Assembly (NCBI GenBank): GCA_963804815.1
Contig: CAWDRU010000002.1
Location: forward strand, 7,126,939 to 7,190,938
Length of the DNA: 64,000 nucleotides
Source: Blastocatellia bacterium
GTDB taxonomy: Bacteria; Acidobacteriota; Blastocatellia; UBA7656
Reading direction: 5' to 3'
A program made the position numbers and the translations under genes. Below are positions 1,723 through 44,127 of this stretch, in pieces. Each line of letters starts with the position of its first letter. Position 1 is the first letter of the stretch. The notes under the pieces are model-generated. The model made no database searches, had not been told where the DNA came from, and saw nothing but the letters and a program-made list of their open reading frames with translations.

Positions 1723-4700
1723 TCAAAAATCAGCATGTCCGCCGATGGTTACAAATGACGCCCAGTTGTAGGGCAGGCGACTACGGTGGTCGTCTTCCCT
1801 GAGCATCTCCCTTTGCGCTTCACTCAGGGCTTCGACTGTAGTCATCTTTCCGATCATGCGGTTACGGTGAAAGCGTATCATCAGCTTAGCGGTGGAATCC
1901 GTATCGACCGGCCATAGACTTGCCACGACAAGCGGAATCCGCTTCGCTATGAAAGGCCGTGCGAGCCCGATCATGCCTTCCCCGCCGTAATAGCGTTCAA
2001 CTCCAGTCCGGCAAGCCGAGAGCACCACCAGCCGCGCCCGTTCAAGATTCAAACTGTATATTTCATTGGCTTGAAGAACCCCGCTTGACTCGCCTGTCAA
2101 ATCTTTCGCCAGCACGAGCTTCGAGCGCATCGAATTCCACTCGTCTGCTATCGCATGCATGGCGAGGTGAATAACATCCGCTTTCTCTATTTCACTTTTA
2201 ACTCGTCTCTTTGTGGCTGACTTCCCGATGAGCGGGGCGGGCGAGCCGTAATAGCCGGTTATGGCCTCTGCCTCTCTGGCAGCCGAATGCAAATCGGCAA
2301 GTCCCGGAAACTTGTCGGTATCAAAGAGCGGGTTGCCGACGCTCAATAGCTTTTCGTTTTTCAATTTGCCTTTTTGATCGGCAGCTTCTGAACAAAGAAT
2401 GAAAACGTTTGAGCTGGGAGAAAGCGCAAACGTATGCTCCTCGATAAAGTATGGACCCGAAGCCCCGGAAACTTTCAGAGCGCCGAACGGAAGATAATTC
2501 AGAATCTTGTCGGGGACGATATAGAGTTGCTTCTCTTTATCGAGAGCGCCCTCGACGGGCTTGATAAGCAAGTCATACAGCGCCGCGGCCTTGTGCGAAG
2601 CCGCCTCCTCGCTATTCCCATCCTGCGCGGAGATCAACTGAAGATAGTCGCGAACCATCTGATTCAACTCTTCAACTGGTAGGCGCAGCAGTTTGCTGAA
2701 AAAGCCGTCTTTTGATACTACCCAGATCACCAGACTGTCTTTCAATACGGCGTATTGCAGTATCTGCGTCTGCGTCGGCATCTGCTGTCGAATATCTTCG
2801 ATGCCCAGCGGCTGCGTGACCTCGCTAAAGCGTATGTCAGGGCTTTCGCGGTCCTCGATGAGCTTAACGTTTGTGCTTATCATATCGCGCAGCGACCGGG
2901 CACGGCTTCTTTCTGAAAAATCAAAAGCCTTTTGCTCATTGCCCTTCTTCGCATACTCAAACTCGATTGCGATGTCATAGATGCTCTGTTCGCCATCGAA
3001 GAAGGTGTTGCGGTTGCTCTCTTCCAATATCTTAGACCTGTGCTGCTCAAAAAGATTAAGGAGCCGGTCCAACTCCTCCTCGAACGAAGGGCAGATGCCC
3101 TGCTCCATGCAGCAAAGCAGTTTGTCTTTCCAAGCCATGTAATTAAAGAAAATCGAGCCTACATCATGGTAAAGTTGAATCGCCCGGTCGTAGTTTTCCA
3201 GAGCCTTATCGAAATCTCCCGCTTTCCTGTAAACATAGCCCAGATGCAGGTAGCAGTATGCGATGGTGTCTGTCTGGACGCTCTTGTCAGGGAAAGAATT
3301 TCCTATCTCAAGGGCGCGCTTTATACTGTTAGCCGCTTCGACATAATCGCCCCTTCTGGCCAGCATCTCCCCCAGATGATTGTAGGAGCGACTTGCGAAC
3401 CACGGCCTTTCCCCATCCAATGCTATTTGCAAAGCTTCCTTTTGAAATGCGATTGCAGCCGCAGGCAGACCGAACTGGTCCAGGGTTAACGATATGGAAA
3501 AATAGTGCCGCCATCTCTGCACCCGCTGTGGCAAACAGGTTAGGGCGAGCGACAATGCCTGCGCATGCAGATCGAGGGCTTTCTGGTAATTGTTTATAAA
3601 ACGATATTCGTCTGCCAGTTGAAAAGTGCTCCCTTCAAAACCCGATGTATCGCCCATATCTTCTGAAAGCTTCAAAGAGCGCGTGGTATGACTTATAGCC
3701 GTCGAAAAGTCTCTAAGGCTCTGATTTCCATGAGCCGTGGCGGTGAGAATCTGCGCCAGTAATTTTTTATACTGAGACTCCTCGCAGCTTCGAGCGATGC
3801 TTTGAAAGATGGCAAGCCCCGGGCCGGGGTTCAACTGGCGTAAATAAGTTTGTCCTATCGCGTACTTCGTGTAGATTGCTTCATAAATATCGCCAGCGCG
3901 TTCAAAGCTCTTTTCAGCGTCATCGTATAATCTTCTGGCTTCCTCAAAATTGTTTTTAGAAGCGATTTCCCGACCTTTTTTCACCAGGCTGCGCGCCTGC
4001 AACATGTTCTTTCGTTGAGCCGGGGTTATGGTCCTGTAAAAACGAACCAGATCGAGCAGGAACCGGTCGCGCGCCTGCCTGTACTCCAGATCAGCTGCGT
4101 AGGCCAGCGCATCGAGTCTTTCGTCGGCTTCGATAAGGCGTCGTTCGGTGACCAGAGCGAGATGCTCGTCCATCAGCCGATTCTCGATGAAATTCCCGGT
4201 CATATCAGGGTTCTGGTTAAGTAGCTTCCATGCCTGCACATCATCTTTAGACTTGTAGGCATTGAGGAAATTTTGAAAAAGCTGCTCTCTGTTTTGCGAA
4301 GGCTGCTCCTCATGTTCTCCAGGCAAACTGAGATTCTGGCGCGCTTCTTCTGCCCATTTTGAATCAGAGTCTTTTTTCAGATAATTCTTCCATGCCTCAG
4401 CGGCCTGTTGTTGCAGGTTCATGTGCTGCAAACATAAAGCGCAATTGAAAAGGGCTTCAGGAAGCGCAGGTTCCAATCCCAATGCCCGGTTGAGTTGCTC
4501 AAGGCTTTTCGCGAAATATTCCAGCCCTCTCCCCGACTCGCCTTTCATTCGATCAGCTTTCCCAAGTTCGAGCAGAGCCGCCCCGTAGTCGCTATGAAAC
4601 TGCGCGTTATTCGACTCTGTTTCGAGCGCTTCTTCAAATTGGGTAATCGCTTGATCGAACTGCCTCTCGGTTAAATAATATATGCCGAGAGCGTGTCGTG

Positions 4701-5007
4701 ATTTTGCGCTCCGGTTAGCCTTGTCATCATACAGAAGTAGCAATGCCGCGCGGTCACGAGTTACTCGCTCAAGTGAGTTTGCCTCACCATCCCGCGTATT
4801 GAGAAAGGCGGCATAGGATAATAATGTAAGCCGCGCTTCAAATGGCCGTTGCTGCCTGTAGGCGTCACGCAGCGCGCGGACTCCGCGCTCGACATCTGTT
4901 TGCGGAATGAACGTGTATATAAAACCGAAGCCCGCCGCAAACAGAATCAGTAAGCAGATAGCTATCTGTCGGACGTTCGCAGTACGAATCTTACTCCGGA
5001 GGCCCAT
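1723..5007 (-). CDS. Membrane-anchored TPR-repeat protein with a C-terminal CHAT (caspase-like) protease domain.
   Basis: 1094-aa ORF. N-terminal TM helix (IAICLLILFAAGFGFIYTFI), then about 700 aa of TPR-like repeats. The C-terminus carries the CHAT His/Cys dyad context: ...VIHLAMHA... and ...RLVVLSACRTG... Confidence 0.8.
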   Translation of the reverse strand: MGLRSKIRTANVRQIAICLLILFAAGFGFIYTFIPQTDVERGVRALRDAYRQQRPFEARLTLLSYAAFLNTRDGEANSLERVTRDRAALLLLYDDKANRSAKSRHALGIYYLTERQFDQAITQFEEALETESNNAQFHSDYGAALLELGKADRMKGESGRGLEYFAKSLEQLNRALGLEPALPEALFNCALCLQHMNLQQQAAEAWKNYLKKDSDSKWAEEARQNLSLPGEHEEQPSQNREQLFQNFLNAYKSKDDVQAWKLLNQNPDMTGNFIENRLMDEHLALVTERRLIEADERLDALAYAADLEYRQARDRFLLDLVRFYRTITPAQRKNMLQARSLVKKGREIASKNNFEEARRLYDDAEKSFERAGDIYEAIYTKYAIGQTYLRQLNPGPGLAIFQSIARSCEESQYKKLLAQILTATAHGNQSLRDFSTAISHTTRSLKLSEDMGDTSGFEGSTFQLADEYRFINNYQKALDLHAQALSLALTCLPQRVQRWRHYFSISLTLDQFGLPAAAIAFQKEALQIALDGERPWFASRSYNHLGEMLARRGDYVEAANSIKRALEIGNSFPDKSVQTDTIAYCYLHLGYVYRKAGDFDKALENYDRAIQLYHDVGSIFFNYMAWKDKLLCCMEQGICPSFEEELDRLLNLFEQHRSKILEESNRNTFFDGEQSIYDIAIEFEYAKKGNEQKAFDFSERSRARSLRDMISTNVKLIEDRESPDIRFSEVTQPLGIEDIRQQMPTQTQILQYAVLKDSLVIWVVSKDGFFSKLLRLPVEELNQMVRDYLQLISAQDGNSEEAASHKAAALYDLLIKPVEGALDKEKQLYIVPDKILNYLPFGALKVSGASGPYFIEEHTFALSPSSNVFILCSEAADQKGKLKNEKLLSVGNPLFDTDKFPGLADLHSAAREAEAITGYYGSPAPLIGKSATKRRVKSEIEKADVIHLAMHAIADEWNSMRSKLVLAKDLTGESSGVLQANEIYSLNLERARLVVLSACRTGVERYYGGEGMIGLARPFIAKRIPLVVASLWPVDTDSTAKLMIRFHRNRMIGKMTTVEALSEAQREMLREDDHRSRLPYNWASFVTIGGHADF

Positions 5008-12334: not shown

Positions 12335-12775
12335 AAAGAGAAGTCGTTATAGTCTCTTTCGGCGAGCATGGAAAGTGAGGCAGAAAATGAAGCTCTGGGA
12401 ACAAACCAAAGCAGTCTTTAACTCAAGCTGAAAACTCTATGCGGTCGTAGCGATGGCCTTCATCCTGCTGATCGCCTGCAATTATTAAGCGCGTAGAACT
12501 CTTCTAATCCATATTTTTCAATAAGCTTTTCTGCGTAAGTACCCAGCTGAATCTATCTCATATCTTATTTTTAAGTAAGACCAAACAACAAAGTAGCTTA
12601 AGTTTCTTTTTTTGTTTTGTCTTTTGTGTAGCAGTACCTTTAGCCACGCGCGCAAAGATGCTTCTCGCCTTCGTGGAAAGTCAATCACTGATGCCGGTTG
12701 ACTTTAATCAATCGTGATGTATACTACTGCCCCTATATGACTTATCAAGTCTTGTCTTGATTCATTGGAGTAACA

Positions 12776-17202: not shown

Positions 17203-17472
17203 ATGAAGAAAAGCCGATTCACTGATCAACAGATCGTTGCAATACTTCGGGAAGCAGAAACCAGCACAGATACCGTAGAGACTGTTTGCCGAAAACATTC
17301 TATCTCCGCTCACACTTTCTACCGCTGGCGTAACAAGTTCGGTGGGCTGGAAGTCAAAGACGCTACCAGGCTCAAAGAGCTTGAACGTGAGAATCAACGC
17401 CTCAAGAAGATTGTTGCTGACCAGGCGCTCGATATCTCTGTCCTTAAGGAGATCAACTCAAAAAAATGGTGA
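17203..17472 (+). CDS. IS3-family transposase OrfA (HTH).
   Basis: [19 protein letters not shown]...[18 protein letters not shown] is a typical IS3/IS407-group OrfA. An A7 slippery run at about 17460-17466 overlaps the orfB start, consistent with a programmed -1 frameshift. Confidence 0.85.
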
Positions 17473-18308
17473 GCGCACTCGTCCGCAGAGATATGGTTGG
17501 CTTTGCTGTTGGAAAAGGATTGTCTGTAAGGAGGGCGTGTGCGCTTGTTCGAGTTGCGAGGTCGGCGCGGGGCTACGCCAGTCGCATGAAGAAGAAGGAT
17601 GCTGAATTGGGCGATAAGCTGCGGCTTATCGCCAGAACTCATACTCGCTACGGATATAGACGAGCAACTGCTTTGATAAAGCAAGAGGGTATGGCCATAA
17701 ATTCGAAGCGGGTCTATAGGCTTTGGCGCAAAGAAGGACTCTGTTTACCCAGGCGCAGACCGCGCAAGCGAGTTCGCACAATTTGCCTGCGCCCTTTTGC
17801 GGCGACACGGGTCAACCAGGTGTGGGCCTATGATTTTGTGTTTGACTCCTGCGCCAACGGGCAGAAGTTGAAACTTCTTACAGTAGTGGATGAATCAACC
17901 AGAGAGAGTTTGGCGATAGAAGTAGGAGGCAGGATTAATTCACAGGCAGTGATAGGTGTGCTGATAAGACTGATGAGCGTGCACGGACAGCCCGAATATC
18001 TAAGAAGTGATAACGGGCCGGAGTTCGTATCGAAAGCGGTAAAACAGTGGTTGAGCAGCAACGGAGTGAAGACAGCCTATATAGAAGGAGGCAAGCCGTG
18101 GCAGAATGGGTTAAATGAGAGCTTTAATGGAAAACTGCGAGATGAATGCTTGAACTTGGAATGGTTCAGAAACCGAGCAGAGGCAAAGGTAGTAATCGAG
18201 CAGTGGCGGAAGCATTATAACGAGAAGCGACCGCATTCGAGTTTAGGGTATAAAACACCAGCGCAGTTTCGCGCTGAACAGACTGGCTTGGAAGCTATCT
18301 CATCTTAG
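17466..18308 (+). CDS. IS3-family transposase OrfB (DDE integrase core).
   Basis: 280 aa with rve-type DDE motifs (...VWAYDFVFD..., ...SDNGPEFVS..., ...[24 protein letters not shown]...). Confidence 0.85.
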
Positions 18309-19340: not shown

Positions 19341-19485
19341 ATCAGACTTTGTTACAGCCGTGCCTCCCCCCTCTTATTTGGTTTTAACGAGAAACATGCT
19401 TTTGAGTTCATGACCGAAGTTTCTCCGCTTTCGGCACGGTTACTGGCTACAGGCTGGTTTATGCTCTCTCCTGTTTTAACTCCCT

Positions 19486-20691
19486 AGATGGACGGCACAC
19501 CAAGATAAGGAGGTGAGCCATCAGCAAATGGTATAATTACCGGATACTCAAAACACTTATTTTGTAAGGAGGTCCGGTGCTCTCTAAACAGGATCGTCTT
19601 GAAGCCATGCGCCGCTTCAAGCACAAGAAAACTAAATCTCATGAGCGCTTGCGCTACCACGCCCTGCTGCTCGTCACCGATGACTACTCTTTCCAGCAGA
19701 TCGCTGATCTGCTCTTTGTTGATCCTGAATCGATCTCGCGTTGGATCCAAATCTATCAACGTGACGGGCTCGATGGCTTGAAGAATAACCCACTGTGGGG
19801 CGGGGAGCGGGGACAGCGCTGGCTCAACAATGAGCAGTTGACCCAACTCGGTACGTTGCTCGACCAGGAAGGCATGCCGGGCACGGAGGTGGGCACTGGT
19901 TGGACCGTTCGCGCTATCATCAATCTGGTTCAGGAGCGTTTCTCGATCAGCTACTCTCAGCGCGGTATGCGCAAGATTCTGCGCACCCTGAACTTCAGTA
20001 GCCAGCGCGGTCGCCCGTTCTACAACCGGCGGACGCCCGCAGATCAACAGCGTTTCGAGAAAGAAACCCTTGAAGTTCTCGAAGAATTCGCCGATTCGGG
20101 CAAGCGTTTGATTCCACTGGCGGGCGATCAGACACGAGTCTATCTGGAAGGCACGGTCGGCAAGCGATGGAGTCGGCGCGGCCACCAACCGAAAGTGCCC
20201 TCGGCGTCGCGCCGCAAATACGCCGAGAACATCTAGGGAGCGGTGCACGTGGCAACAGGCGAGGAGGTAGCTCCCTTCTCGATAGATTTTCAGGATGCAG
20301 ATGCGACGATCCGGTGGTTTGAGATGGTGATTGAAGAGAATCCACGAGGGAAGATATTGGTGTGGCTGGACTCTGCACCGCATCTGGTGCACGAAGAGGT
20401 CGACGAGTGGCTTGAGAGGCAACAAAGAATTCGAGTGAAACGCTTCCCACACTACACACCGGAGGAGAATCCAAAAGAAGCGACGTGGAAGACGCTTAAG
20501 CAGGAAGCGAGTGTGCAGGGCTGGCATCCGACGAAAAAGAGTCTGTCGGAAGCGATAGATTGCTTTTATCAGTCGGTCAGACGACATAAGGTGAACTTTC
20601 TGGAGCGGTTCGGTTATGTCTGGAAGAGGGGACGTATCCACCCGCTGCCTCAATTATCATGAGTCGGCATTTTGGTGTGCCGTCCATCTAG
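19486..20691 (+). mobile_element. IS630-family element (copy A) with perfect 20-bp terminal inverted repeats. Its transposase is interrupted by an in-frame TAG.
   Basis: IRL CTAGATGGACGGCACACCAA is at about 19485-19504; IRR TTGGTGTGCCGTCCATCTAG is at about 20672-20691. Confidence 0.75.
19577..20662 (+). pseudogene. IS630-family (DDE_3) transposase with an in-frame amber stop at 20237-20239.
   Basis: ORFs 19577..20236 and 20243..20662 are in the same frame, separated only by TAG (...RKYAENI*GAVHVATGEEV...). HTH N-terminus and DDE C-terminus are typical of IS630/Tc1. Confidence 0.75.
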
Positions 20692-20693
20692 AG

Positions 20694-22082
20694 CATTGGC
20701 ATCTACACATGTTGGCCGGATCAGCCCGTATCATAGCGAGAAAATCCCGGTAGACTGAGACACGCTACTTGTCTGAGTTCATCGACACTGTATCGCTCAA
20801 GCGCATTCAGCACTGCTAGCAGCGTCCATAATCCAGCCAGCATCGCTGAGTCGGTCACTCGGCGGTCACGACGCATCTGTCTGCCACTCAATCGCACCAG
20901 GAGATTACGCGCCTGCTCGCTCTCAGGTGTCTGACCGCGCGCCAACTGCCAGACAACCACTGCCGCCATTGCTGTCACCAATAACCGTTTAGCTATTGCT
21001 TCGGCGCTCTCCTGTTGCCAATGCTCCAAATTATGGCCGCTGGATTTCAACAGCTTAAAGTAACTCTCTATTTTCCACCGCCACACATACCACTGCGCGA
21101 TCTGCTCTGCCGTCACCGTTTCAGGCAAGTTCGTCAGTAGCAGCCACTCCGCATACAACGATTCATCTGGTAAAACGATCCGGCTCACGACAAGCCTCAA
21201 CTGCAAAGCTTTGCCATAGACTCGCTCACGGGGCTGCTTGATGCCGCCCTTTTGTCGATGTGGGAAGGCCGGTCGGGTAATCGTCACCTTCGTTTCAGCC
21301 AGCAGTTGCTGCCCGACAAGTCCGGGCGCAACAGCAATTGCCTGGCCCAGCCGCAATGACAAGCCTGCTGCCACACGGCCCAGTCGCCGCCTCTCTCCTT
21401 CAAACTCCACCTGCGGTACTGCCCGCGCCCGCACAATAAAAGCTTCTCCTTGATCATCCCACTGTCGGTAATGACCAACCGAGTCGGCGGCGCGATCAAT
21501 AAGATGCACGACGGGCTTGGACAACTGCATCTTGCTGATGGTCGCCAGGGTGTCGGTGATTTCATCAAGGTGCGAGCAATCGGCCAATACCGGCGACTGG
21601 CGCGTCGTGTATAAACCATCATTGGCCCACAAGCTAAACGACAGCGGAGAGATGGGTGTGCCGTCACGATCAGATATCAATAAGGCAGTTTGCAAGCTGT
21701 AACCGAGCGAACGCTTATGACAGATGGCCTTGCGGTCGGCTTTACGGGTATGCAGATCGTAATTGAGTTCAGACCAGTCGTGAATAATCAGAGCAAAGTC
21801 GCCGGTTTCGTCTGTAAGCACTCGTTTGGCAGCGGCGATCAGCGGCTCGGCTAATTGAGGAAGCGAAACAGCCGGATTGCTATAAAAACGCCAGGCGGCC
21901 TGAGTGCTGGCGAAAGCAGTACCGGCAGCGGGCAAAGCCCGAAGCCCTGCGGCGACGGCCTGTGTTGGGTTCATCTGCTCGGTCACGAGTTGCTGATAGC
22001 GCCGTTGCAGGCGCAGTTCAAGATTGGGTGTTGCAAACACATTTTATAATATTAGCGTACTCGACATGTGTAGATGCCAATG
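20694..22082 (-). mobile_element. IS4-family insertion sequence, copy 1 (about 1389 bp), with perfect 18-bp terminal IRs and a 9-bp TSD CATCTAGAG.
   Basis: Ends are CATTGGCATCTACACATG ... CATGTGTAGATGCCAATG. Flanking direct repeats catctagag lie at about 20685-20693 and 22083-22091. Inserted at the very tip of the IS630-A right IR. Confidence 0.8.
20721..22040 (-). CDS. IS4-family (DDE_Tnp_1) transposase, intact, GTG start.
   Basis: 439 aa with YVWRWKIESYFKLLKS, the C-terminal IS4 signature (YREK-type). Identical to ORF 31336..32655. Confidence 0.85.
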   Translation of the reverse strand: MFATPNLELRLQRRYQQLVTEQMNPTQAVAAGLRALPAAGTAFASTQAAWRFYSNPAVSLPQLAEPLIAAAKRVLTDETGDFALIIHDWSELNYDLHTRKADRKAICHKRSLGYSLQTALLISDRDGTPISPLSFSLWANDGLYTTRQSPVLADCSHLDEITDTLATISKMQLSKPVVHLIDRAADSVGHYRQWDDQGEAFIVRARAVPQVEFEGERRRLGRVAAGLSLRLGQAIAVAPGLVGQQLLAETKVTITRPAFPHRQKGGIKQPRERVYGKALQLRLVVSRIVLPDESLYAEWLLLTNLPETVTAEQIAQWYVWRWKIESYFKLLKSSGHNLEHWQQESAEAIAKRLLVTAMAAVVVWQLARGQTPESEQARNLLVRLSGRQMRRDRRVTDSAMLAGLWTLLAVLNALERYSVDELRQVACLSLPGFSRYDTG

Positions 22083-22300
22083 CATCTAGAGCTTGGTAAA
22101 AAAATACCCCTTTGGCGTGAGTCCGAGGGGAATACTTTCTGTTGCCAGATTTCTTTCTCTCGGAGCCACACCCAAAGGGTACTATGACTTCTCACGCCGT
22201 AAGTTTCCTTACAGAGCAAGTATAGCAAACTGACAGAATCTGCAAATAGTTAAGCTGGGGATAACTCCACGCTACTCTTTAGACACCGCTCTCGTCGTTA

Positions 22301-22435
22301 TCAGGGTTCTATGTCTTCGTCTCGATCAGAAGGGTACTTAAGAGTCTGACCAGCTTTTACGTTCGTCTTAACTTCAGGAAAGTTTTGGTCTTCAATGTAT
22401 CTCACAAAGAATGGTACTTCGTTTTTAGTATCCAT
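22301..22435 (-). CDS. Small 44-aa acidic peptide (MDTKNEVPFFVRYIEDQNFPEVKTNVKAGQTLKYPSDRDEDIEP). Paralog of the peptide at 43868..44038. Not in the ORF track.
   Basis: About 60% identical to the 43868 peptide. Preceded on the minus strand by GAGG (SD) and a consensus sigma70 promoter: TTGACA - 18 nt - TATCTT. Confidence 0.55.
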   Translation of the reverse strand: MDTKNEVPFFVRYIEDQNFPEVKTNVKAGQTLKYPSDRDEDIEP

Positions 22436-22454
22436 AGTTACCTCTTGGGCAGAA

Positions 22455-22484
22455 AAGATACTCTTTGCATTGATGCAGTGTCAA
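22455..22484 (-). promoter_or_regulatory. Sigma70-type promoter (TTGACA-N18-TATCTT) for the small peptide gene. The spacer holds a TGCATCAATGCA palindrome.
   Basis: Minus-strand reading is TTGACACTGCATCAATGCAAAGAGTATCTT. The -35, the -10 and the TGCATCA spacer core are conserved with 43820-43849. Confidence 0.5.
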
Positions 22485-22602
22485 TCACTTATAGCAAATC
22501 CAGTTTGGCTGTCCCTGTGGATAACATACAGCGTCAAATAGAGATTACTGGGCATATTTATTTTTTTGCTATTTTTCCAGGCGGTTGCTTCGGTCTAAAT
22601 CG

Positions 22603-23817
22603 AAACCTATGAGATTGGCACAGATCAGGTTCTCTCTGATAAATCGATTGTTGCTACACACTCGATTTGTCTCGGAGAACAAGCTGTGCCCAACTCGACC
22701 ATACTTGACCTTCCGCAACCTCAGCAAGAACAGATGCTTTCTCAAATCCGTCAAGCCCGTTACGGTTACTTGCTCGCGCTGCACGTCCTTCTGCTTTGTG
22801 CCCCTGGCCGCACGCCTACCGAGATCGCTGCCTTCTTGTTCTGCTCGCCTTCTTCGGTCTATCGCATCGTCTCGGCTTATCACTGTCAGTCGCTCGGCTT
22901 TGCCTTCACTGAGGATGGCCAACCTCAACCTCCTGTGCCAACCTCTTGTCTGTCGCCTTCCTTGCGACGCTCCTTACTGGCATTGCTCAAAGCCGCGCCT
23001 CACGCCTTCGGTTGGTGTCGCACGCGCTGGAGTTGCGCAACTCTGGCTGCACAACTCAAAGTCAATCGTGGCATCACCGCCTCTGCCGATACCACCCGTC
23101 GCTGGTTGCATCAACTCGGCTGGGTTTGGAAGCGGGCCAAGCTCATCACTAAAGATGATGATCCGCAACGGGTCGAGAAGTTGGCACGAATTCGCTGGAT
23201 CTTTGAGCATATAAGCGCGAAACAACTCCTACTGTTTGCTGATGAACTCGACATCCACTTGTTGCCAAAAGTTGGCTATCAGTGGATGGAGAAAGGCAGC
23301 CAACTTGAAGTCTGCACGCCGGGTACAAATGAGAAGGACTATCTGGCCGGAGCTCTTGATATAGTCACAGGCCGTATGTTGCACTGCGTCTGGTTTCGCA
23401 AAACCAGCGGCCTGTTCATTGATCTGCTCAAGGTCATTGACCGAACCTACTCGGCCTATCAGTATACGAATATCTTCGTGGTTGTGGACAATTACAAAAT
23501 CCACAAAGCTAAGGCGGTCGAGCAATGGCTTCTGAGGCATCCACGAATAGAGTTGATATATCTAGCCGACCTACTGCCCGAAAGCCAATCCTATAGAGCG
23601 AGCCTTTGGAGATGTGCATGATAAATGCACGCGCAATCACAAGCGAAAGCGACTGCGGGATTTGGTTGGAGATGTGATCAAGCATTTGCGAGTCAATGGC
23701 CCGTGGAAATACAAGCTGTCTGAAATCTACTACATAGTAGAAGTCACAGCAGCGGTTGAAAAGATGGCTGCTGATGAAAGGTTAAAGGCTGCCGCTTGAG
23801 TGTCCCAATCTCACGCG
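22603..23817 (+). mobile_element. IS630-family element (copy B, different lineage from copy A). Its transposase is frameshifted by a 1-bp insertion near the C-terminus.
   Basis: Terminal inverted repeats about CTATGAGATTGGCACA ... GTGTCCCAATCTCAC. The transposase frame switches at about 23570: ...IELIYL then (+1) PTYCPKANPIERAFGDVHDKCTRNHKRKRL... Confidence 0.65.
22686..23799 (+). pseudogene. IS630-family transposase, frameshifted (ORFs 22686..23621 and 23614..23799).
   Basis: The DDE_3 C-terminus ...VVVDNYKIHKAKAVEQWL... continues in the +1 frame after a single inserted G in ctaGccgacctac. Confidence 0.7.
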
Positions 23818-23962
23818 GCCTGATTTAGTGCAGCCGCACATCATAGCGATGCAGCAAAGCAGGAGAATAGGCAACAGGTTATAGGGTTTACCTTTAGCTT
23901 GTCTAAAATCGGGAAGAAGTGATAAAGCTTGAGCAAGAGAAGGCACAGAAGTGCTCATAGGC
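23818..23962 (-). pseudogene. N-terminal fragment of a second ISAs1-family transposase, truncated by IS630-B.
   Basis: Minus-strand translation MSTSVPSLAQALSLLPDFRQAKGKPYNLLPILLLCCIAMMCGC... matches the DDE_Tnp_1-associated N-terminus of ISAs1-family transposases. It runs into the IS630-B right IR. Confidence 0.45.
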
Positions 23963-23964
23963 GT

Positions 23965-25154
23965 TCCTCCTAAGAAATTGATGTGTCAACCTCATTCTAC
24001 AGAGGAACGCCTCTTTCTCGCAGACAATGAATAGACCTTGCGGGATGGCTGAGGCCATTGGCAGTCTCCTGAATGCCGCAATGCTGTTTGAACGCGAGCG
24101 TTTCTTGAACGCTGCTCCTTATGAGCGCACCCAGGACCGTCGCGACTACTCTAACGGCTTCAAGGCAAAGCGGCTGCGCACGAGAGTCGGCGACCTCGAC
24201 TTGCGCATTCCACAAGTGCGCAACTCAGACTTCTATCCCCAAGCTCTTGAACGCGGCACTCGCTCAGAGCGCGCTTTGAAACTCTCACTGGCCGAGATGT
24301 AGGTGCAGGGAGTTTCGACTCGCAAGGTCAAAGCCATCACTGAGAAGCTGTGCGGCTTTGAAGTCACATCCGCCCAGGTCTCACGAGCAACTGCCGAGTT
24401 GAATGAACATTTCAAGCAATGGCGAGAGCGTCGGCTGGGGCCTATGCCTTACCGGCAAGTCGATGCCCGCTACGAACATGTTCGTGAGGGCGGGCTGGTC
24501 ATAGACGAAGCCGTTTTCACTGCTATTGGCATTGATCTTGAAGGCCGCCGTGAAGTGATAGGCACGAGCATCAGCCGAAGTGAGGCGGAAGTCCATTGGC
24601 GAGAGTTTCTACAGAGGCTTGTCGGGCGCGGGTTGAGCGGATTGGAGTTAATAACGAGTGACGCGCACTCAGGACTTGAGGCCACGCGCAAGGCAGTGTT
24701 GCCGAGCGTGCCCTGGCAGCGGTGTCAATTTCATCTGCAACAGAATGCTACCCAGTATGTGGTGAGAGTAGAGCAGCGAAAAGAGGTGGCGGCGGATATA
24801 AGAGCAATCTTCAACGCGCCTAATCGCAATGAGGCAGAGCGGTTGCTGGCAGCGGCGGTGAAGAAGTATAGCCAGAGCGCGCCGCGACTGAGCGTGTGGA
24901 TGGAAGAAAATCTGGAGCAGGGGCTAACAGTAATGAGTTTCCCTGCCGAGCATCAGAAGCAGCTGAGAACGACGAACCTGTGCGAGCGAGTAAATCGAGA
25001 GATAAAGCGGCGGACGAGAGTGGTGAGCATATTCCCGAATGCGCGATCACTAGAGAGGCTGGTGACGGCAGTGTTGATGGAGATAAGTGAGGACTGGCAG
25101 AGTGGTGCTCGCTACTTGACGATGACTTGAATTGGTTTCTTGTGAGGAGTGAAT
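23965..25154 (+). mobile_element. IS256-family element. Ends are approximate. The transposase is interrupted by an in-frame TAG.
   Basis: A Mutator-type transposase occupies 24027..25130. Putative imperfect terminal repeats lie about 23965-23990 and 25131-25157. It abuts or truncates the ISAs1 transposase at 25155. Confidence 0.55.
24027..25130 (+). pseudogene. IS256-family transposase with an amber stop at 24300-24302, where the conserved Tyr of EMY-x-GVSTRKV is expected.
   Basis: ORFs 24027..24302 and 24303..25130 are in the same frame (...LKLSLAEM*VQGVSTRKVKAITE...). The DDE and CxxH region ...PWQRCQFHLQQNA... is present. Confidence 0.75.
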
Positions 25155-26063
25155 TTACAGAAATAACATTGCACTATCCTGCTCAAAACGTCCGTGCTGC
25201 TTGTCTAGACTCTCGGCTCGCTCGAAATCATTACCGATGACCTTGAGGCGCGTATAGCCTCCTTCTATCTCAAACAGCGCGGCTATATCTGAACGCAGGC
25301 TGGCCTGGTTACCTTTCACTGTCCAGAGGTAATCTCCACCAGCTTCTACGACCAGTCGAGAGAGCTTACGTTGCGCAAACATAGCGTCGCCGGTAACGAC
25401 TTTTCCCTGCAAATCTATGCTTTTGAGCAGGCGGGGGGCGACCACCACTTCATTCTCTTTAGAGCCTACCTCCATCTGCATCCTGCATCAGCACGATTCC
25501 TTTATCCGGTAAGTGGGCTGCGAGTAAGTGCAAGCCTTGCTTTTGGCCAGCCCTTATCGTGCCTCTGAGCGCCTTCCCATCCAGGTTGATCTCTACGGCT
25601 TGCCCCGCATCAGGATCAGAGAGCAGGAAACGGCTGACGGCCTGTTGTAGTTGCTCAACATCAACTGCCTTTCCCAGTATTCTAGAATAGGTAATCGGAT
25701 GGGGCACGGTGTCGCGATCAAAGCCGAGAGTTTCACGTAGAAGTTCTTTGCGCAACTCTATCCACTGAACAATGCCGCGAGGTTCCTGCTCGCCAGCGAG
25801 TTTAGCTAGAATGACGAAGACCAAAGCTAAAGCGAGGGGGTAGCGAATCCCGTGTGGGTCACGGCGGTCATTGAGCTTATCGAGATGCTCATAGAGACTG
25901 CCGACATCAAAGAAGAAAGCTTCATCAATATCCTCAGGCAAAAAGGCAGCAGTGGTATACTTCATTGAGACCTTCCTCCGGTTCTGTTTAGTCTTGCAAC
26001 TTACAGATTAACCGGGTTAGGTCCTTCTTTTTAATTGTCAACCTACTTTGTTACAGCCCTGAT
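25155..26063 (-). mobile_element. ISAs1-family element. This is the right-hand portion, with a terminal IR at 26043-26063. The transposase is frameshifted and C-terminally truncated by the IS256 insertion.
   Basis: Transposase ORFs 25459..25965 (MKYTTAAFLPEDIDEAFFFDVGSLYEHLDKLNDRRDPHGIRYPLA...) and 25155..25481 read as one gene with a frameshift near 25470. Terminal sequence CTACTTTGTTACAGCCCTGAT. Confidence 0.6.
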
Positions 26064-27966: not shown

Positions 27967-29316
27967 TTGATAAAGCCGAAACAGGTCAGCCCCGCGCGCC
28001 GCGCCGCGTTCGACATTCTGCGCCGCGTAGAGGCCGAAGGCGCGTATGCTTCGGTTCTCATCTCTCGGCTTCCCGAATCGAACCTGTCGCGCGAAGACCG
28101 CTCGCTCGCGCAAGAGATAGCGCTCGGCGTGTTGCGCCGAAGGCGACTGCTCGATTATTTCATAGAACGCTACTCGCGCCGCGCCACATCCCGCCTCGAC
28201 CTCTCTGTTTTGATAGCGCTTCGCATGGGGCTTTATCAGTTGCGCTACCTGACACGCATTCCGCAGCGCGCGGCAGTCAACGAATCTGTGAATCTTGTGA
28301 AACTGGCGCGCGTCCACAGCGCTGCCGGAATGGTCAACGCCGTCCTGCGCAACGCGGCGCGCCATATGGATGAAGGCTTCGCCGAAGAAATTTCAGACCC
28401 GCTTGAAAGACTCTCAATCGAACTTTCTCATCCGCGATGGATGCTTGAACGCTGGATGAAATCACTGGGCGATGCAGAAGCGCGTGCGCTCGCGCTTGCC
28501 AATAACGAACCGCCAACGACAGCTTTTCGCGTCAACACGCTCCGCGCCACTGTTGATGAAACGCTCGCACATCTTAAAGATGCGGGCCTCGGCCTGCGCC
28601 CGTCGACTTTAACGCCCGGCGCGTTTATCGTTGAAAGCGGCGCGGCGTCACTACTGGCCGAAGCCGCAGAGCGCGGCATCATCTATATTCAGGATGAAGC
28701 GTCGCAACTGGTATCGCGGCTGCTCGACCCTGAAAGCGGCAGCCGCGTGCTTGACCTGTGCGCAGCGCCCGGCTCCAAGTCGTCTCATATAGCGGCGCTC
28801 GCCGAAGGAAAAGCATGGATCGTAGCATGTGACATTCATCCGCACAGGCTCGCGACGCTTGGCGCGACGTGTCGAAAGCTCGGCATCGATTCGATTGATC
28901 GCGTTGCTCTGGACGCGACTACTGCGTTGCCTTTTGCCGATAGCGCCGTCGGGTTCGACCGCGTGTTGATTGATGCGCCATGCACGGGCACGGGCACGCT
29001 CCGTCGAAACCCTGAGATCAAGTGGCGACTTGAGGCTGATACGATTGAGCGCCTCGCTCGCGTTCAATTGCGATTGCTTGAGCGCGCGACCGATGTGCTC
29101 AAGCGAGGCGGGCGACTGGTTTACTCAACCTGTTCAATCGAGCGCGAAGAGAATGAAGAGGTGATCGGGCGGTTCATCGAAAGCGGCGCGCCTTACAGAT
29201 TGCTGCGCCCGGACGCTCATTTTGACCTCATCACTGCCGAAGGCTTTGTGAGAACATTTCCACACCGTCACGGCGCGGATGGTTTCTTCGCCGCCGTGCT
29301 TGAAAAAACCGGTTGA
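27967..29316 (+). CDS. rsmB: 16S rRNA (cytosine967-C5)-methyltransferase RsmB/Sun family.
   Basis: 449 aa with a NusB-like N-terminus and a SAM-MTase core (...VLDLCAAPGSKSSHIA..., ...DRVLIDAPCTGTGTLRRNPEIKW..., ...GGRLVYSTCSIEREENEEV...). Confidence 0.85.
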   Translation: MIKPKQVSPARRAAFDILRRVEAEGAYASVLISRLPESNLSREDRSLAQEIALGVLRRRRLLDYFIERYSRRATSRLDLSVLIALRMGLYQLRYLTRIPQRAAVNESVNLVKLARVHSAAGMVNAVLRNAARHMDEGFAEEISDPLERLSIELSHPRWMLERWMKSLGDAEARALALANNEPPTTAFRVNTLRATVDETLAHLKDAGLGLRPSTLTPGAFIVESGAASLLAEAAERGIIYIQDEASQLVSRLLDPESGSRVLDLCAAPGSKSSHIAALAEGKAWIVACDIHPHRLATLGATCRKLGIDSIDRVALDATTALPFADSAVGFDRVLIDAPCTGTGTLRRNPEIKWRLEADTIERLARVQLRLLERATDVLKRGGRLVYSTCSIEREENEEVIGRFIESGAPYRLLRPDAHFDLITAEGFVRTFPHRHGADGFFAAVLEKTG

Positions 29317-30248
29317 GCGCGAAAGCGAAAGTAGGTTTTATGAGACGAGTAATCCTGAGCCTGTTGATGGTTGTTTTCTCGGTTTCGATGATGAACGCGG
29401 ACAGTACCGTTCAGAAAAAGACTCAGATAATAATTCTCGGAACAGGGACTCCGAACGCCGACCCTGAGCGGTCCGGCCCGTCGGTCGCCATTGTAGTAAA
29501 TGATACGCCGTACATAATTGACTTCGGGCCGGGCGTTGTTCGCCGCGCGGCTGCGGCTTTCCAGAAAGGCGTCGAAGGGCTTGCGGTCAGTCGGCTAAAG
29601 ACTGCTTTTGTAACTCACCTGCACTCCGATCACACGGTCGGATACGCCGATTTGATCTTTACCCCGTGGACGCTGGATCGGAAAGAGCCGCTTGCAGTCT
29701 ACGGCCCCAGAGGCATCCGTGCGATGACTGCGCATCTGCTCGCGGCATACAAAGATGACATCCGCATACGAACGAGGGGGCTTGAGCCGTCCAACCACAC
29801 GGGCTTCAAAGTCATCGCGCACGAGATAAAGCCCGGCCTTATCTACAAAGATGCGAATGTCACGGTCAAAGCTTTTCTCGTAAAACACGGCTCGTGGCCT
29901 CAAGCGTTCGGTTACAGATTTGAAACATCGGACCGTACTATAGTCATCTCAGGCGATACCACGCCGAGCGCGAGCGTGATCGATAATTGCAACGGCTGCG
30001 ATGTGCTGATTCACGAAGTCTACTCGACCGCAGGGTTTGCCCGCAGAACTCCTGAATGGCAAAAGTATCACTCGCGTTTTCATACGTCCACGCGCGAGCT
30101 TGCAGAGATTGCGACAAAAGCCAGACCCGGATTGCTCATTCTTTATCACCAACTGTTCTGGGGCGCGACCGATGCGGATTTGATCAAAGAGGTGCAACAG
30201 ACCTATCACGGAAAGGTAGTATCGGGTCGCGACCTCGATATTTATTAG
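29313..30248 (+). CDS. MBL-fold metallo-hydrolase, exported.
   Basis: Signal peptide, then THLHSDHTVGYADLIFTPW (HxHxDH motif) and later ...CDVLIHEVY... Confidence 0.7.
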   Translation: MSAKAKVGFMRRVILSLLMVVFSVSMMNADSTVQKKTQIIILGTGTPNADPERSGPSVAIVVNDTPYIIDFGPGVVRRAAAAFQKGVEGLAVSRLKTAFVTHLHSDHTVGYADLIFTPWTLDRKEPLAVYGPRGIRAMTAHLLAAYKDDIRIRTRGLEPSNHTGFKVIAHEIKPGLIYKDANVTVKAFLVKHGSWPQAFGYRFETSDRTIVISGDTTPSASVIDNCNGCDVLIHEVYSTAGFARRTPEWQKYHSRFHTSTRELAEIATKARPGLLILYHQLFWGATDADLIKEVQQTYHGKVVSGRDLDIY

Positions 30249-30263
30249 CGCAGAGGTTCTATT

Positions 30264-31229
30264 ATGAAAAGCGATGTGACGATCAACGATATTCAACAGG
30301 CAAAGGGGCGCATAGCTTCAATCGTTCGCCGCACGCCGCTCGAACATTCCGCATGGCTTTCAACCGAGTTAGAGCGCGATGTACGGCTAAAACTCGAATG
30401 CTTTCAGGTGACAGGCTCGTTCAAACTTCGCGGCGCGATGGCGAAGCTTTCTCGATTGACCGAAGCTGAGAGCGCGCGCGGCATATTGACTGTTTCGGCT
30501 GGCAATCATGGACTGGCCGTTGCTCACTGCGCCAGCGCGCTCTCGCTTGATGCCACGATAATCGTGCCGCGCTCGGCCTCGCCCACGAAGGTCGCTGCTA
30601 TTCGTCGTTATCCGGTCACGCTCATCGAGCGCGGCGCAGACTATGACGAAGCCGAACTGGCGGCGCGCGAAATGGAGCGCGAAACGGGTGCGACGTTCGT
30701 TTCACCATATAACGACGCCGATGTGATAGCGGGGCAGGGAACCATCGCGCTTGAAATTCTGGAAGACGCGCCTGATGTTGACGCCATCCTTGTGCCGGTC
30801 GGAGGCGGAGGGTTGCTGGCGGGAGTTTCAGTAGCCGTGAAAGCCAACTATCCGCACATCGAAGTCTACGGCGTGGAGCCGCTCTCTTCGCCCACGATGT
30901 ACGAAGCGCTTCGCGCGGGCCGCATCCTTGAGATAAAAGAAGAAGCGACGATAGCCGACGGGCTGGCCGGAAACATCGAAGCGGGCTCGATCACGTTTCC
31001 GCTCGTCGCGCATCTGGCCGACGGAATTATTCTTGTCAGCGAAGAGTCGATGCGCGATGCAATCAGGCGCGTAGCGCGCGAAGATCACATAATGATCGAA
31101 GGCTCGGCGGCGGTCGCCATCGCCGCGCTCGCAGACGAGCGACTTAAAGGTCAGCGTACCGTTGCGGTAATCACTGGCCGCAACATCAGCCTCGATCTGT
31201 TCGCAGGCATAATCTCGAATCACAAGTGA
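30264..31229 (+). CDS. PLP-dependent threonine/serine dehydratase family enzyme.
   Basis: 321 aa. LECFQVTGSFKLRGA is the PLP-lysine motif; ...TVSAGNHGLAVA..., and the glycine loop ...VPVGGGGLLAGV... Confidence 0.75.
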   Translation: MKSDVTINDIQQAKGRIASIVRRTPLEHSAWLSTELERDVRLKLECFQVTGSFKLRGAMAKLSRLTEAESARGILTVSAGNHGLAVAHCASALSLDATIIVPRSASPTKVAAIRRYPVTLIERGADYDEAELAAREMERETGATFVSPYNDADVIAGQGTIALEILEDAPDVDAILVPVGGGGLLAGVSVAVKANYPHIEVYGVEPLSSPTMYEALRAGRILEIKEEATIADGLAGNIEAGSITFPLVAHLADGIILVSEESMRDAIRRVAREDHIMIEGSAAVAIAALADERLKGQRTVAVITGRNISLDLFAGIISNHK

Positions 31230-31308: not shown

Positions 31309-32697
31309 CATTGGCATCTACACATGTTGGCCGGATCAGCCCGTATCATAGCGAGAAAATCCCGGTAGACTGAGACACGCTACTTGTCTGAGTTCATCGA
31401 CACTGTATCGCTCAAGCGCATTCAGCACTGCTAGCAGCGTCCATAATCCAGCCAGCATCGCTGAGTCGGTCACTCGGCGGTCACGACGCATCTGTCTGCC
31501 ACTCAATCGCACCAGGAGATTACGCGCCTGCTCGCTCTCAGGTGTCTGACCGCGCGCCAACTGCCAGACAACCACTGCCGCCATTGCTGTCACCAATAAC
31601 CGTTTAGCTATTGCTTCGGCGCTCTCCTGTTGCCAATGCTCCAAATTATGGCCGCTGGATTTCAACAGCTTAAAGTAACTCTCTATTTTCCACCGCCACA
31701 CATACCACTGCGCGATCTGCTCTGCCGTCACCGTTTCAGGCAAGTTCGTCAGTAGCAGCCACTCCGCATACAACGATTCATCTGGTAAAACGATCCGGCT
31801 CACGACAAGCCTCAACTGCAAAGCTTTGCCATAGACTCGCTCACGGGGCTGCTTGATGCCGCCCTTTTGTCGATGTGGGAAGGCCGGTCGGGTAATCGTC
31901 ACCTTCGTTTCAGCCAGCAGTTGCTGCCCGACAAGTCCGGGCGCAACAGCAATTGCCTGGCCCAGCCGCAATGACAAGCCTGCTGCCACACGGCCCAGTC
32001 GCCGCCTCTCTCCTTCAAACTCCACCTGCGGTACTGCCCGCGCCCGCACAATAAAAGCTTCTCCTTGATCATCCCACTGTCGGTAATGACCAACCGAGTC
32101 GGCGGCGCGATCAATAAGATGCACGACGGGCTTGGACAACTGCATCTTGCTGATGGTCGCCAGGGTGTCGGTGATTTCATCAAGGTGCGAGCAATCGGCC
32201 AATACCGGCGACTGGCGCGTCGTGTATAAACCATCATTGGCCCACAAGCTAAACGACAGCGGAGAGATGGGTGTGCCGTCACGATCAGATATCAATAAGG
32301 CAGTTTGCAAGCTGTAACCGAGCGAACGCTTATGACAGATGGCCTTGCGGTCGGCTTTACGGGTATGCAGATCGTAATTGAGTTCAGACCAGTCGTGAAT
32401 AATCAGAGCAAAGTCGCCGGTTTCGTCTGTAAGCACTCGTTTGGCAGCGGCGATCAGCGGCTCGGCTAATTGAGGAAGCGAAACAGCCGGATTGCTATAA
32501 AAACGCCAGGCGGCCTGAGTGCTGGCGAAAGCAGTACCGGCAGCGGGCAAAGCCCGAAGCCCTGCGGCGACGGCCTGTGTTGGGTTCATCTGCTCGGTCA
32601 CGAGTTGCTGATAGCGCCGTTGCAGGCGCAGTTCAAGATTGGGTGTTGCAAACACATTTTATAATATTAGCGTACTCGACATGTGTAGATGCCAATG
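31309..32697 (-). mobile_element. IS4-family insertion sequence, copy 2. Identical to copy 1, with a 9-bp TSD CTTATATTT.
   Basis: Same 18-bp terminal IRs. Flanking direct repeats cttatattt lie at about 31300-31308 and 32698-32706. Inserted between the dehydratase and pirin genes. Confidence 0.8.
31336..32655 (-). CDS. IS4-family transposase (identical to 20721..22040).
   Basis: 439-aa protein identical to copy 1. Confidence 0.85.
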   Translation of the reverse strand: MFATPNLELRLQRRYQQLVTEQMNPTQAVAAGLRALPAAGTAFASTQAAWRFYSNPAVSLPQLAEPLIAAAKRVLTDETGDFALIIHDWSELNYDLHTRKADRKAICHKRSLGYSLQTALLISDRDGTPISPLSFSLWANDGLYTTRQSPVLADCSHLDEITDTLATISKMQLSKPVVHLIDRAADSVGHYRQWDDQGEAFIVRARAVPQVEFEGERRRLGRVAAGLSLRLGQAIAVAPGLVGQQLLAETKVTITRPAFPHRQKGGIKQPRERVYGKALQLRLVVSRIVLPDESLYAEWLLLTNLPETVTAEQIAQWYVWRWKIESYFKLLKSSGHNLEHWQQESAEAIAKRLLVTAMAAVVVWQLARGQTPESEQARNLLVRLSGRQMRRDRRVTDSAMLAGLWTLLAVLNALERYSVDELRQVACLSLPGFSRYDTG

Positions 32698-32704
32698 CTT
32701 ATAT

Positions 32705-39946: not shown

Positions 39947-40579
39947 CTAATCCATGTGCACGATGCCGCGCTGGAGCGCGAAGGTTGCGGCCTGCGTGCG
40001 GTCGCTGACGCCGAGTTTGCTCAGTATGTTGTTGATATGGATCTTGACCGTGCCTTCGGCGATGAACAATTTGGCGGCGATCTCTTTATTGCTCCTGCCT
40101 TCAACGATGAGCCTCAACACTTCAAGCTCGCGAGCAGTCAACTCCGTGCGGTTCATCCGCTCGGCCAGCCGATTCGCCACTTCGGCTGGAATGCGGCGCT
40201 GTCCTGCGTGTACTGCGCGAATTGCTTCGACCAGACCATCGCGCATCATGTCTTTCAGCAGGTAAGCGCGCGCGCCTGCCTGTAGCGCGCGATAGATGTC
40301 TTCATCCCCATCGTAGGTCGTCAACACGATAAAACGCCCTTCGGGAAATTCTTTGCGAATCGTGGCGATGGCTTCGATGCCGTCCATCTCCGGCATGCGC
40401 AAATCCATGAGCGTGATGTCTGGTCGGTGCTGGCGAAAGAACTCGACAGCCTGACTGCCTGTTGTCGCCTCGGCCACAACCGTCATATCCGGCTGCGTGT
40501 GGATGACTGCGGATAGCCCCATACGCACAACGAAATGATCGTCGGCAATCAGTATGCGAATCGGTTTATCATCGCTCAT
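39947..40579 (-). CDS. NarL/FixJ-family response regulator (REC plus LuxR-type HTH).
   Basis: RILIADDHFVVRMGL...DITLMDLRMPEMDGIEA is a receiver domain. The C-terminal ...LTARELEVLRLIVEGRSNKEIAAKLFIAEGTVKIHINNILSKLGV is a LuxR HTH. Confidence 0.85.
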   Translation of the reverse strand: MSDDKPIRILIADDHFVVRMGLSAVIHTQPDMTVVAEATTGSQAVEFFRQHRPDITLMDLRMPEMDGIEAIATIRKEFPEGRFIVLTTYDGDEDIYRALQAGARAYLLKDMMRDGLVEAIRAVHAGQRRIPAEVANRLAERMNRTELTARELEVLRLIVEGRSNKEIAAKLFIAEGTVKIHINNILSKLGVSDRTQAATFALQRGIVHMD

Positions 40580-40639
40580 AGCTTCTACATCTTATCGCCA
40601 ACCGTCTGCGGTTGAAACTCAATCTGCGATAGCCCTCTC

Positions 40640-43756: not shown

Positions 43757-43819
43757 AAATCAGCTTGCCGCCGTAAAGCTGTCTACAGAGACAGCCATTC
43801 TCGACTTGTGGGTAAGTAA

Positions 43820-43849
43820 TTGACATTGCATCAGCAACAGGCGTATCTT
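43820..43849 (+). promoter_or_regulatory. Consensus sigma70 promoter (TTGACA-N18-TATCTT) for the small peptide gene. It is divergent from the sensor-kinase operon start.
   Basis: TTGACATTGCATCAGCAACAGGCGTATCTT followed by GGAGG 5 nt before the ATG at 43868. The architecture and the TGCATCA spacer core are shared with the 22455-22484 promoter. Confidence 0.5.
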
Positions 43850-43867
43850 TGCGCCAGGGAGGTTACG

Positions 43868-44038
43868 ATGAAAACGAATAACGAACAACCATTCTTTGCG
43901 AGATTCTTAGAGGGACAGAATTTTCCTGAAATTAAGACGAGCGTAAAAGCCGGGGTAAGTCAGAAATACCCATCCGATATAGACGAAACTGATAAATACC
44001 CATCTGATGGTGATGATTCTGGCTTAGGCGAACCATAA
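43868..44038 (+). CDS. Small 56-aa acidic peptide (MKTNNEQPFFARFLEGQNFPEIKTSVKAGVSQKYPSDIDETDKYPSDGDDSGLGEP). Paralog of the 22301..22435 peptide, with a duplicated KYPSD motif.
   Basis: Has a strong promoter and SD. About 60% identity to the other copy (PFFxRFlE, QNFPE, KT.VKAG and KYPSD blocks). Confidence 0.55.
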   Translation: MKTNNEQPFFARFLEGQNFPEIKTSVKAGVSQKYPSDIDETDKYPSDGDDSGLGEP

Positions 44039-44127
44039 ACCTCATTTTACCCGGAGCCATAATCCTGGAGACGCAGAGGAATACACTTATCACTCTGCGC
44101 CTCCTCGGCTTCTAAAGAACTCTTCGA

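Follow-up and report, generated by a model that had tools for sequence, protein, structure and literature searches.

Two short open reading frames that encode similar acidic peptides, one of them enclosed by insertion sequences (ISs), raise the question of what kind of product they specify, which enzymes could act on it, and whether the enclosed copy is still a working gene. Both lie in the window, the whole 64-kb stretch of DNA that was analysed. A sequence-only reading had described a 44-aa ORF on the minus strand (copy 1) and a 56-aa ORF on the plus strand (copy 2), and both exist as described (Table 1). The reading preferred here, with a probability of roughly 0.8, is that both ORFs are precursors of the microviridin/marinostatin family (group-1 graspetides, omega-ester peptides) and that they are satellite genes whose products are matured in trans.

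Table 1. Positions in the window of the two precursor genes, their signals and the surrounding ISs, with the gene order of the ligase cluster L089 from the same genome bin.
Feature	Position	Strand	Description
Copy 1 precursor ORF	22301..22435	-	44 aa; microviridin-type; single core
Copy 1 predicted signals	22441..22484	-	-35 TTGACA 22484-22479; 18-nt spacer; -10 TATCTT 22460-22455; SD AAGAGG 22446-22441
Copy 1 upstream block	22485..22545	-	Common to copy 2 and the L089:1861 paralogue; includes ACAGrGACAGCCA
Copy 1 hairpin	22093..22195	-	Long, then U-run; -49.6 kcal/mol, z = -5.0 (RNA fold)
Copy 2 precursor ORF	43868..44038	+	56 aa; class-II-type; two tandem cores
Copy 2 predicted signals	43820..43862	+	-35 TTGACA 43820-43825; 18-nt spacer; -10 TATCTT 43844-43849; SD GGGAGG 43857-43862
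Copy 2 upstream block	43760..43819	+	Paralogous to 22485-22545
Copy 2 hairpin	44053..44112	+	Between copy 2 and convergent gyrB; -27.2 kcal/mol, z = -4.4 (RNA fold)
IS3	17466-18308		Member of IS nest
IS630-A (label used here)	19484..20691		Small IS; 23-nt terminal inverted repeats (TIRs); no transposase model matched
IS4-family element	20694..22083		1390 bp; 100% identical to 31309-32698; 9-bp TSD CATCTAGAG
IS630-B	22595..23828		IS630-family; 28-nt imperfect TIRs; promoter-side boundary of the copy-1 remnant
IS256 fragment	24303-25130		Member of IS nest
ISAs1 N-terminal fragment	25459-25965		Member of IS nest
L089 gene 1			57-aa precursor
L089 gene 2			HlyD-like protein
L089 gene 3			Peptidase_C39/ABC_membrane/ABC_tran exporter, 895 aa
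L089 gene 4			Second ABC protein, 718 aa
L089 genes 5			Precursors, 56 and 59 aa
L089 gene 6			ATP-grasp ligase, 341 aa; MdnB-type
L089 gene 7			ATP-grasp ligase, 329 aa; MdnC-type

Coding Status and Family Membership

Copy 1 consists of the leader MDTKNEVPFFVRYIEDQNFPEVKTNVKAG and a sole core, QTLKYPSDRDEDIEP, with the core motif TLKYPSDRDE. Copy 2 has the leader MKTNNEQPFFARFLEGQNFPEIKTSVKAG followed by the cores (V)SQKYPSDIDE and TDKYPSDGDD in tandem, the first with Ser at the canonical Thr position. BLASTP aligned the two peptides with 27/40 identities (68%, E 7e-20), which amounts to 61% of the 44-aa peptide, and the identity of about 60% given earlier was therefore fair. At the DNA level the similarity of the copies extends from ~110 nt upstream of the ATG, reaching ~60 nt 5' of the -35 hexamer, up to where the first KYPSD core ends. 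Between copy 1 and its orthologue at locus L087, third codon positions account for six of the nine differences, with dN 0.039, dS 0.219 and dN/dS 0.18; dN/dS between the two paralogues is 0.24. The third-position bias and the low dN/dS support the coding status of the ORFs. The claim that these are real, conserved genes and not random ORFs is borne out by the profile matches given below, by dozens of homologues and by dN/dS values of ~0.2, and such sequence data support the view that both are independently expressed small genes.

Copy 1 scored 28.4 bits against Pfam PF12559 (Inhibitor_I10, curated cut-off 21 bits) and 33.4 bits against NCBIfam NF033738 (titled 'microviridin/marinostatin family tricyclic proteinase inhibitor', cut-off 26 bits); the corresponding scores of copy 2 were 37.2 and 41.2 bits. 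Copy 2 is identical to P0001, a protein of a Blastocatellia metagenome-assembled genome (MAG) that carries the NF033738 title as its NCBI name. The earlier statement that no known family could be recognised did not hold, since both peptides exceed the cut-offs and one is already so named in GenBank. The exact copy 1 peptide is absent from the searched protein collection, which includes NCBI's proteins for the same MAG; its relatives are 44-aa orthologues of 86-93% identity, and its PFFVRYIE leader is common to P0014 and P0015 from other samples. A count of homologues had been proposed as a check, and it returned 13 and 33, every one a member of PF12559. P8, F9, F10, R12, E15, Q17 and the K..PSD.D motif are invariant in these homologues. 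In a 14-member alignment, P-F-F-x-R, E15, Q17 and K-x-P-S-D-x-D are likewise invariant and the pre-core 'AG' is nearly so. Protein-level homologues are numerous and spread across phyla. The sole PDB match was chain P of 5IG9 ('Microviridin'), aligned on PFFARFL and KYPSD with a weak E-value of 0.67.

Hallmarks of the family are a PFFARFL leader helix that binds and activates ATP-grasp ligases, and a TxKxPSD core with downstream acidic residues that receives two lactones and one lactam (PMC7823629, PMC8939145). Three classes of precursor have been distinguished, class II combining tandem cores behind one leader with a C39-peptidase exporter (PMC7823629). The leader of copy 2 contains the exact PFFARFL motif (PFFARFLE) and that of copy 1 a conservative variant, PFFVRYI (PFFVRYIE). 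The TxKxPSD pattern followed by two acidic residues was found in copy 1 and in both cores of copy 2. The guess at a RiPP, made from the duplicated KYPSD motif, was correct and can be narrowed to microviridin-type precursors, while the other suggestion, a phospho/acidic signalling tail, is without support.

Proposed Maturation and Location of the Enzymes

In the proposed pathway, the PFFARFL-type helix of the N-terminal leader would dock on dedicated ATP-grasp ligases and activate them. An MdnC-type ligase would form two side-chain lactones (Thr/Ser to Asp, and Ser to Asp/Glu) in each T/S-x-K-Y-P-S-D-x-D/E-D/E core, and an MdnB-type ligase would next form a Lys to Glu/Asp lactam, giving a caged tricyclic peptide expected to inhibit serine proteases. 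The nearly invariant pre-core 'KAG' is a probable double-glycine-type cleavage site of a C39-peptidase ABC exporter. Copy 1 would thus yield one core and copy 2 two cores of the class II type, and both genes would act as self-contained promoter-gene-hairpin satellites, served in trans by the cluster at locus L089.

Such enzymes are not encoded near the two genes. Pfam and NCBIfam searches covering nearly every ORF of >=150 aa found no ATP-grasp domain in the 64-kb window, and neither precursor adjoins a pair of paralogous ATP-grasp ligases (MdnC/MvdD and MdnB/MvdC) there. MvdD-type ATP-grasp ORFs occur in the flanks of 66 of the 78 genomic loci encoding family members; the 135 ligase ORFs from these loci, confirmed by Pfam as PF21068 (MvdD pre-ATP-grasp domain), were used as tblastn queries and revealed no ligase remnant in the window (best E = 0.009). 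Radical-SAM maturases had been suggested by the sequence-only reading; the relevant maturases are ATP-grasp ligases. The following candidates were considered and rejected. Two adjacent ORFs of ~315 aa (29313-31229) encode an MBL-fold hydrolase and a threonine dehydratase. A 389-aa ORF (19484-20653, minus strand) has no family match, lies inside a TIR-bounded IS and is probably a spurious antisense frame. A 322-aa ORF at locus L001, considered as a cryptic ligase, has no Pfam match.

A full cluster is present in the same genome bin. Contig JBAWDW010000102.1 of MAG GCA_049590935.1 is 99.995% identical to positions 33868-54038 of the window and carries copy 2. The ligase adjoining the closest copy-1 orthologue was used as query and retrieved P0053 (90% identity), which is encoded on contig JBAWDW010000155.1 of the same MAG, at L089, and occurs also on a 7.9-Mb contig. 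The 329-aa ligase of L089 (Table 1) matched the 5IG9 ligase (MdnC) at 3e-112, and the 341-aa ligase matched AMdnB (7M4S) at 2e-113 and 5IG8 at 2e-101. From these MdnC- and MdnB-type matches, both lactone- and lactam-forming activities would be available in the bin. With three precursors in L089 and two in the window, the bin holds at least five, and two cores are found in four of these five (the three of L089 and copy 2). Copy 2, with tandem cores behind a single leader, and L089, with its C39-peptidase ABC exporter, together show the class II arrangement. The stand-alone precursor of L089 has the same promoter cassette as the window genes and 85% DNA identity to copy 2. No GNAT N-acetyltransferase (MdnD/MvdB) was found among the Pfam matches of the window or the genes listed for L089; this enzyme is not required for cyclisation. 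Given a cluster elsewhere in the MAG and no ligase in the window, the window genes are satellite precursors, most likely matured in trans. That the window and L089 belong to one genome is suggested by metagenome binning.

Copy 1 Within a Nest of Insertion Sequences

Copy 1 had been described as marooned in a remnant of about 510 bp, and this is accurate, the interval between the IS4-family element and IS630-B measuring 511 bp (22084..22594). The IS4 element sits in the end of IS630-A, with ~10 nt between it and the copy-1 terminator, and IS630-B is itself inserted in an ISAs1-like fragment. The region from 14.7 to 26.1 kb forms a dense IS nest, and a pair of 96-nt inverted repeats (19001-19096/25968-26063, 85% complementary) brackets the whole nest including copy 1. 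Contig JBAWDW010000102.1, from a short-read NCBI MAG, begins at ~32.57 kb of the window, inside the second IS4 copy (31309-32698). The repeated IS4 accounts for the lack of copy 1 and the IS nest on that contig, and the position of its start indicates that the assembly behind the window is more contiguous than that MAG.

An earlier state of this region is suggested by comparison with relatives. At L087, 230 bp separate P0014, the closest copy-1 orthologue (93%), from the 3' end of an operon of a precursor, an MdnB-like and an MdnC-like gene, the two being convergent. The L087 and window sequences are ~89% identical from 4 nt upstream of the -35 hexamer through the gene and the hairpin/T-run to ~22095, and the match ends ~10 nt before the IS630-A/IS4 junction. 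L087 and L089 are 85% identical across both ligases, the similarity extending just 6 nt beyond the ligase stop codon. From these matches, the two halves of the L087 arrangement lie here on different contigs, the break falling where terminator and ligase stop codon meet. Originally the copy-1 module probably faced the ligase operon in convergent orientation, to be separated from it later by an IS-associated rearrangement; the alternative order of events is that the module inserted beside the ligase operon in the L087 lineage. Another relative, L091, has no copy-1-type gene downstream of its ligases. At L088 (9730-12910), four tandem precursors, including the copy-1-like P0024 (80%), stand directly upstream of two ligases and downstream of C39-ABC and ABC genes, which indicates that copy-1-type peptides are encoded within the operon in some lineages.

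The best surviving rival to the preferred reading takes copy 1 for a stranded relic that is still intact because the IS invasion was recent, its product being unmatured or, from a poorly recognised PFFVRYI leader, a bicyclic marinostatin-like peptide. We regard this as unlikely. The island between nested ISs and the 100% identity of the two IS4 copies, a sign of recent activity, would fit such a history, but the ORF, promoter, SD and terminator of copy 1 are all intact, and its dN/dS of 0.18 likewise speaks against the relic. The absence of the exact peptide from a protein collection that holds NCBI's MAG proteins points the same way as the island, and so does the leader, in which three residues of PFFARFL are replaced (A to V, F to Y, L to I). 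According to a review, MdnB does not tolerate changes in this motif, and a single substitution can be enough to prevent lactam formation by it (PMC7823629). PFFVRYIE is nevertheless conserved in P0014 and P0015, and at L087 it adjoins functional-looking ligases. Distance from the ligases is by itself no sign of loss, since other precursors of this genome are likewise far from them.

Neighbourhood of Copy 2 and Other Window Genes

Genes at 39947-43756 (minus strand) lie divergent from copy 2 and encode a LuxR-type response regulator and a sensor kinase of the Reg_prop/Y_Y_Y/HisKA_3 type (1027-1038 aa). Within the kinase gene, the propeller blades give rise to extensive DNA repeats. The upstream block of copy 2 falls within the divergent intergenic region shared with this histidine kinase gene. 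Orthologues of copy 2 adjoin either genes for an M23 peptidase and an ECF sigma factor or another precursor, and the two-component system was rejected as a dedicated regulator of copy 2 because the neighbourhood is not conserved. The same evidence bears on a second rival, in which the peptides act unmodified, for instance as acidic signalling or regulatory molecules tied to the two-component system, and resemble microviridins superficially. The divergent kinase and regulator pair and the lack of an adjacent ligase invite this view. It is very improbable, as the kinase is not a conserved neighbour, all cross-link residues of the family are retained and cognate ligases occur in the same bin, and maturation of both peptides in trans is preferred.

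Other genes of the window were recorded in passing. An animal haem peroxidase domain (PF03098, E 1e-107) is present at full length in a 576-aa protein (55670-57400, plus strand). A 1094-aa TPR and CHAT-domain (caspase-like protease) protein is encoded at 1723-5007 (minus strand); protease inhibitors could conceivably act on CHAT proteases or work together with them. A pair of PALP-family (threonine/serine dehydratase-like) paralogues is found at 30264-31229 and 54219-55193 (both plus strand), within 25 kb of each other; a PALP gene is also present ~5 kb away from the microviridin cluster of L091, probably by coincidence.

Predicted Expression Signals and the Shared Promoter Module

Each copy has a predicted promoter that agrees with the consensus at 10/12 positions and an SD spaced 5 nt from the ATG. 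Within the window, TTGACA-N18-TATCTTT is present at two sites only, those of copies 1 and 2, against 0.01 expected by chance. The TTGACA-N18-TATCTT promoter and SD described earlier are thus present at both genes, but 'textbook' overstates their quality, the -10 agreeing at 4/6 positions and the spacer being 18 nt long. The TGCATCA spacer core is indeed common to the copies in this genome, but it is confined to three paralogues there and absent from orthologues. The supposed palindrome 'TGCATCAATGCA' of copy 1 proved to be an imperfect, interrupted inverted repeat (TGCAT-CA-ATGCA) that orthologues do not conserve. Core and palindrome were rejected as an operator, since orthologues lack them and the short dyads, of which every spacer has one, have arms of 3-5 bp that could be due to chance. 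The L087 orthologue conserves the hexamers and the SD and has a different spacer, and the upstream block 22485..22545 is absent from orthologues in other genomes.

Downstream of copy 1, the hairpin predicted by folding looks like an intrinsic terminator. It is conserved with L087 to ~22095, and at L087 the orthologue and the convergent ligase operon have it in common. The hairpin that follows copy 2 has no U-run on the plus strand. No known RNA families were found across 21.9-44.3 kb.

The promoters belong to a wider module typical of this lineage, AAGTrATTGACA-N18-TATCTTTGC-N6-9-GGAGG, that stands upstream of stand-alone precursors in the window (twice) and at L089, L087, L005, L092 and L093, as well as on the metagenome contigs L097, L100, L105 and L107. 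Operon precursors directly upstream of ligases are without it. Between genomes, homology of the module starts sharply ~6 nt upstream of the -35 hexamer and ends at the coding sequence or terminator, and the module is a discrete unit in differing neighbourhoods. Its spacer TTCCACGAAGGCGAGGAG recurs nearly unchanged in several instances. A motif search placed the module also 5' of a gene for a Cys-rich secreted 97-aa protein (L005/L006) and of small ORFs in L014, L094/L102 and L099, and the promoter is therefore not specific to these peptide genes, since it precedes unrelated small genes too.

A third, degenerate module, TTGACT-N18-CATCTTTGC with the spacer TTCCACGAAGGCGAGAAG, lies at 12652-12689 (minus strand) of the window and is 85-92% identical to the modules of L087, L093 and L005. 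Neither a precursor nor a convincing ORF follows it, and it may be a relic or the promoter of a small RNA. That the similarity of the two copies is repeated non-coding DNA (a promoter module or MITE) with ORFs arising by chance, as the module before unrelated genes and at 12652-12689 and the likeness ~110 nt upstream of the ATG might suggest, can be considered already refuted by the third-position bias (6/9 against the orthologue), the low dN/dS, the curated protein profiles matched above threshold and the many protein-level homologues across phyla.

In all cassettes the conserved -10 region runs on to TATCTTTGC, for example at 43844-43852. Bacteroidetes promoters have a TAnnTTTG '-7' motif, which TATCTTTGC fits, and these Acidobacteria may use a non-canonical extended -10. 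A conserved module of this kind could help to define acidobacterial promoters. At L006 (764-1302) and L005 (9606-10144), the stand-alone precursor P0010, from another Blastocatellia lineage, follows the Cys-rich, signal-peptide-bearing 97-aa gene with the same module. The contig of the L006 pair carries HNH endonuclease, T4_Y16D and phage-integrase genes and may represent a mobile element.

A tentative extension of the preferred reading, which we consider possible but less likely than not, is that precursor genes in this Blastocatellia lineage have become autonomous, relocatable modules of ~300-400 bp (promoter, SD, precursor and hairpin) with a shared promoter module that, from its placement, would also drive other small secreted or membrane proteins. 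If this is true, it would imply a dedicated regulon or a promoter-capture mechanism, with control of the precursor repertoire split from the ligase operon, and such modules would diversify the protease-inhibitor output of one enzyme pair.

Comparison With Known Systems

The window peptides are members of a well-understood RiPP class, and for one of the two this annotation already exists. The finding moves them from an 'unknown acidic peptide family' to that class and does not describe a new system. The genes record the presence of microviridin-type systems in uncultured soil Blastocatellia, where a genome bin holds five or more precursors, and they indicate that unlinked satellite precursor genes would escape cluster-centred genome mining. 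The new natural core variants T-L-K, S-Q-K and T-D-K, together with the PFFVRYI leader, could serve in tests of protease specificity and of how much variation the ligases tolerate.

The closest comparison is with cyanobacterial MdnA/MvdE (class I/II, Ahmed et al. per PMC7823629), which share with the window peptides the PFFARFL-type leader and the TxKYPSDx(D/E)(D/E) core with all cross-link residues. Class II microviridins have one leader and tandem cores, as does copy 2, and MdnC/MdnB-type ligases with a C39-peptidase ABC exporter, as does the L089 cluster. In contrast to MdnA/MvdE, the host here is a member of the Blastocatellia (Acidobacteriota) and not a cyanobacterium, the window genes are unlinked from ligases and have their own promoter and hairpin, the leader of copy 1 is PFFVRYI, and Ser replaces Thr in core 1 of copy 2. 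Unlike microviridin systems, L089 has no GNAT acetyltransferase among its listed Pfam families.

Marinostatin of Alteromonas and chryseoviridin of Chryseobacterium belong to the same Pfam/NCBIfam family and follow the same leader logic. Chryseoviridin-type loci have been reported to combine multi-core precursors with several precursor genes (PMC8939145). Marinostatin is bicyclic and contains esters only, whereas the bin studied here has both ester- and amide-type ligases. In the prochlorosin system, many scattered ProcA precursor genes with a conserved leader are served by one enzyme, ProcM. The likeness of ProcA/ProcM to the present genes is one of genome organisation only, prochlorosins being lanthipeptides with a different chemistry.
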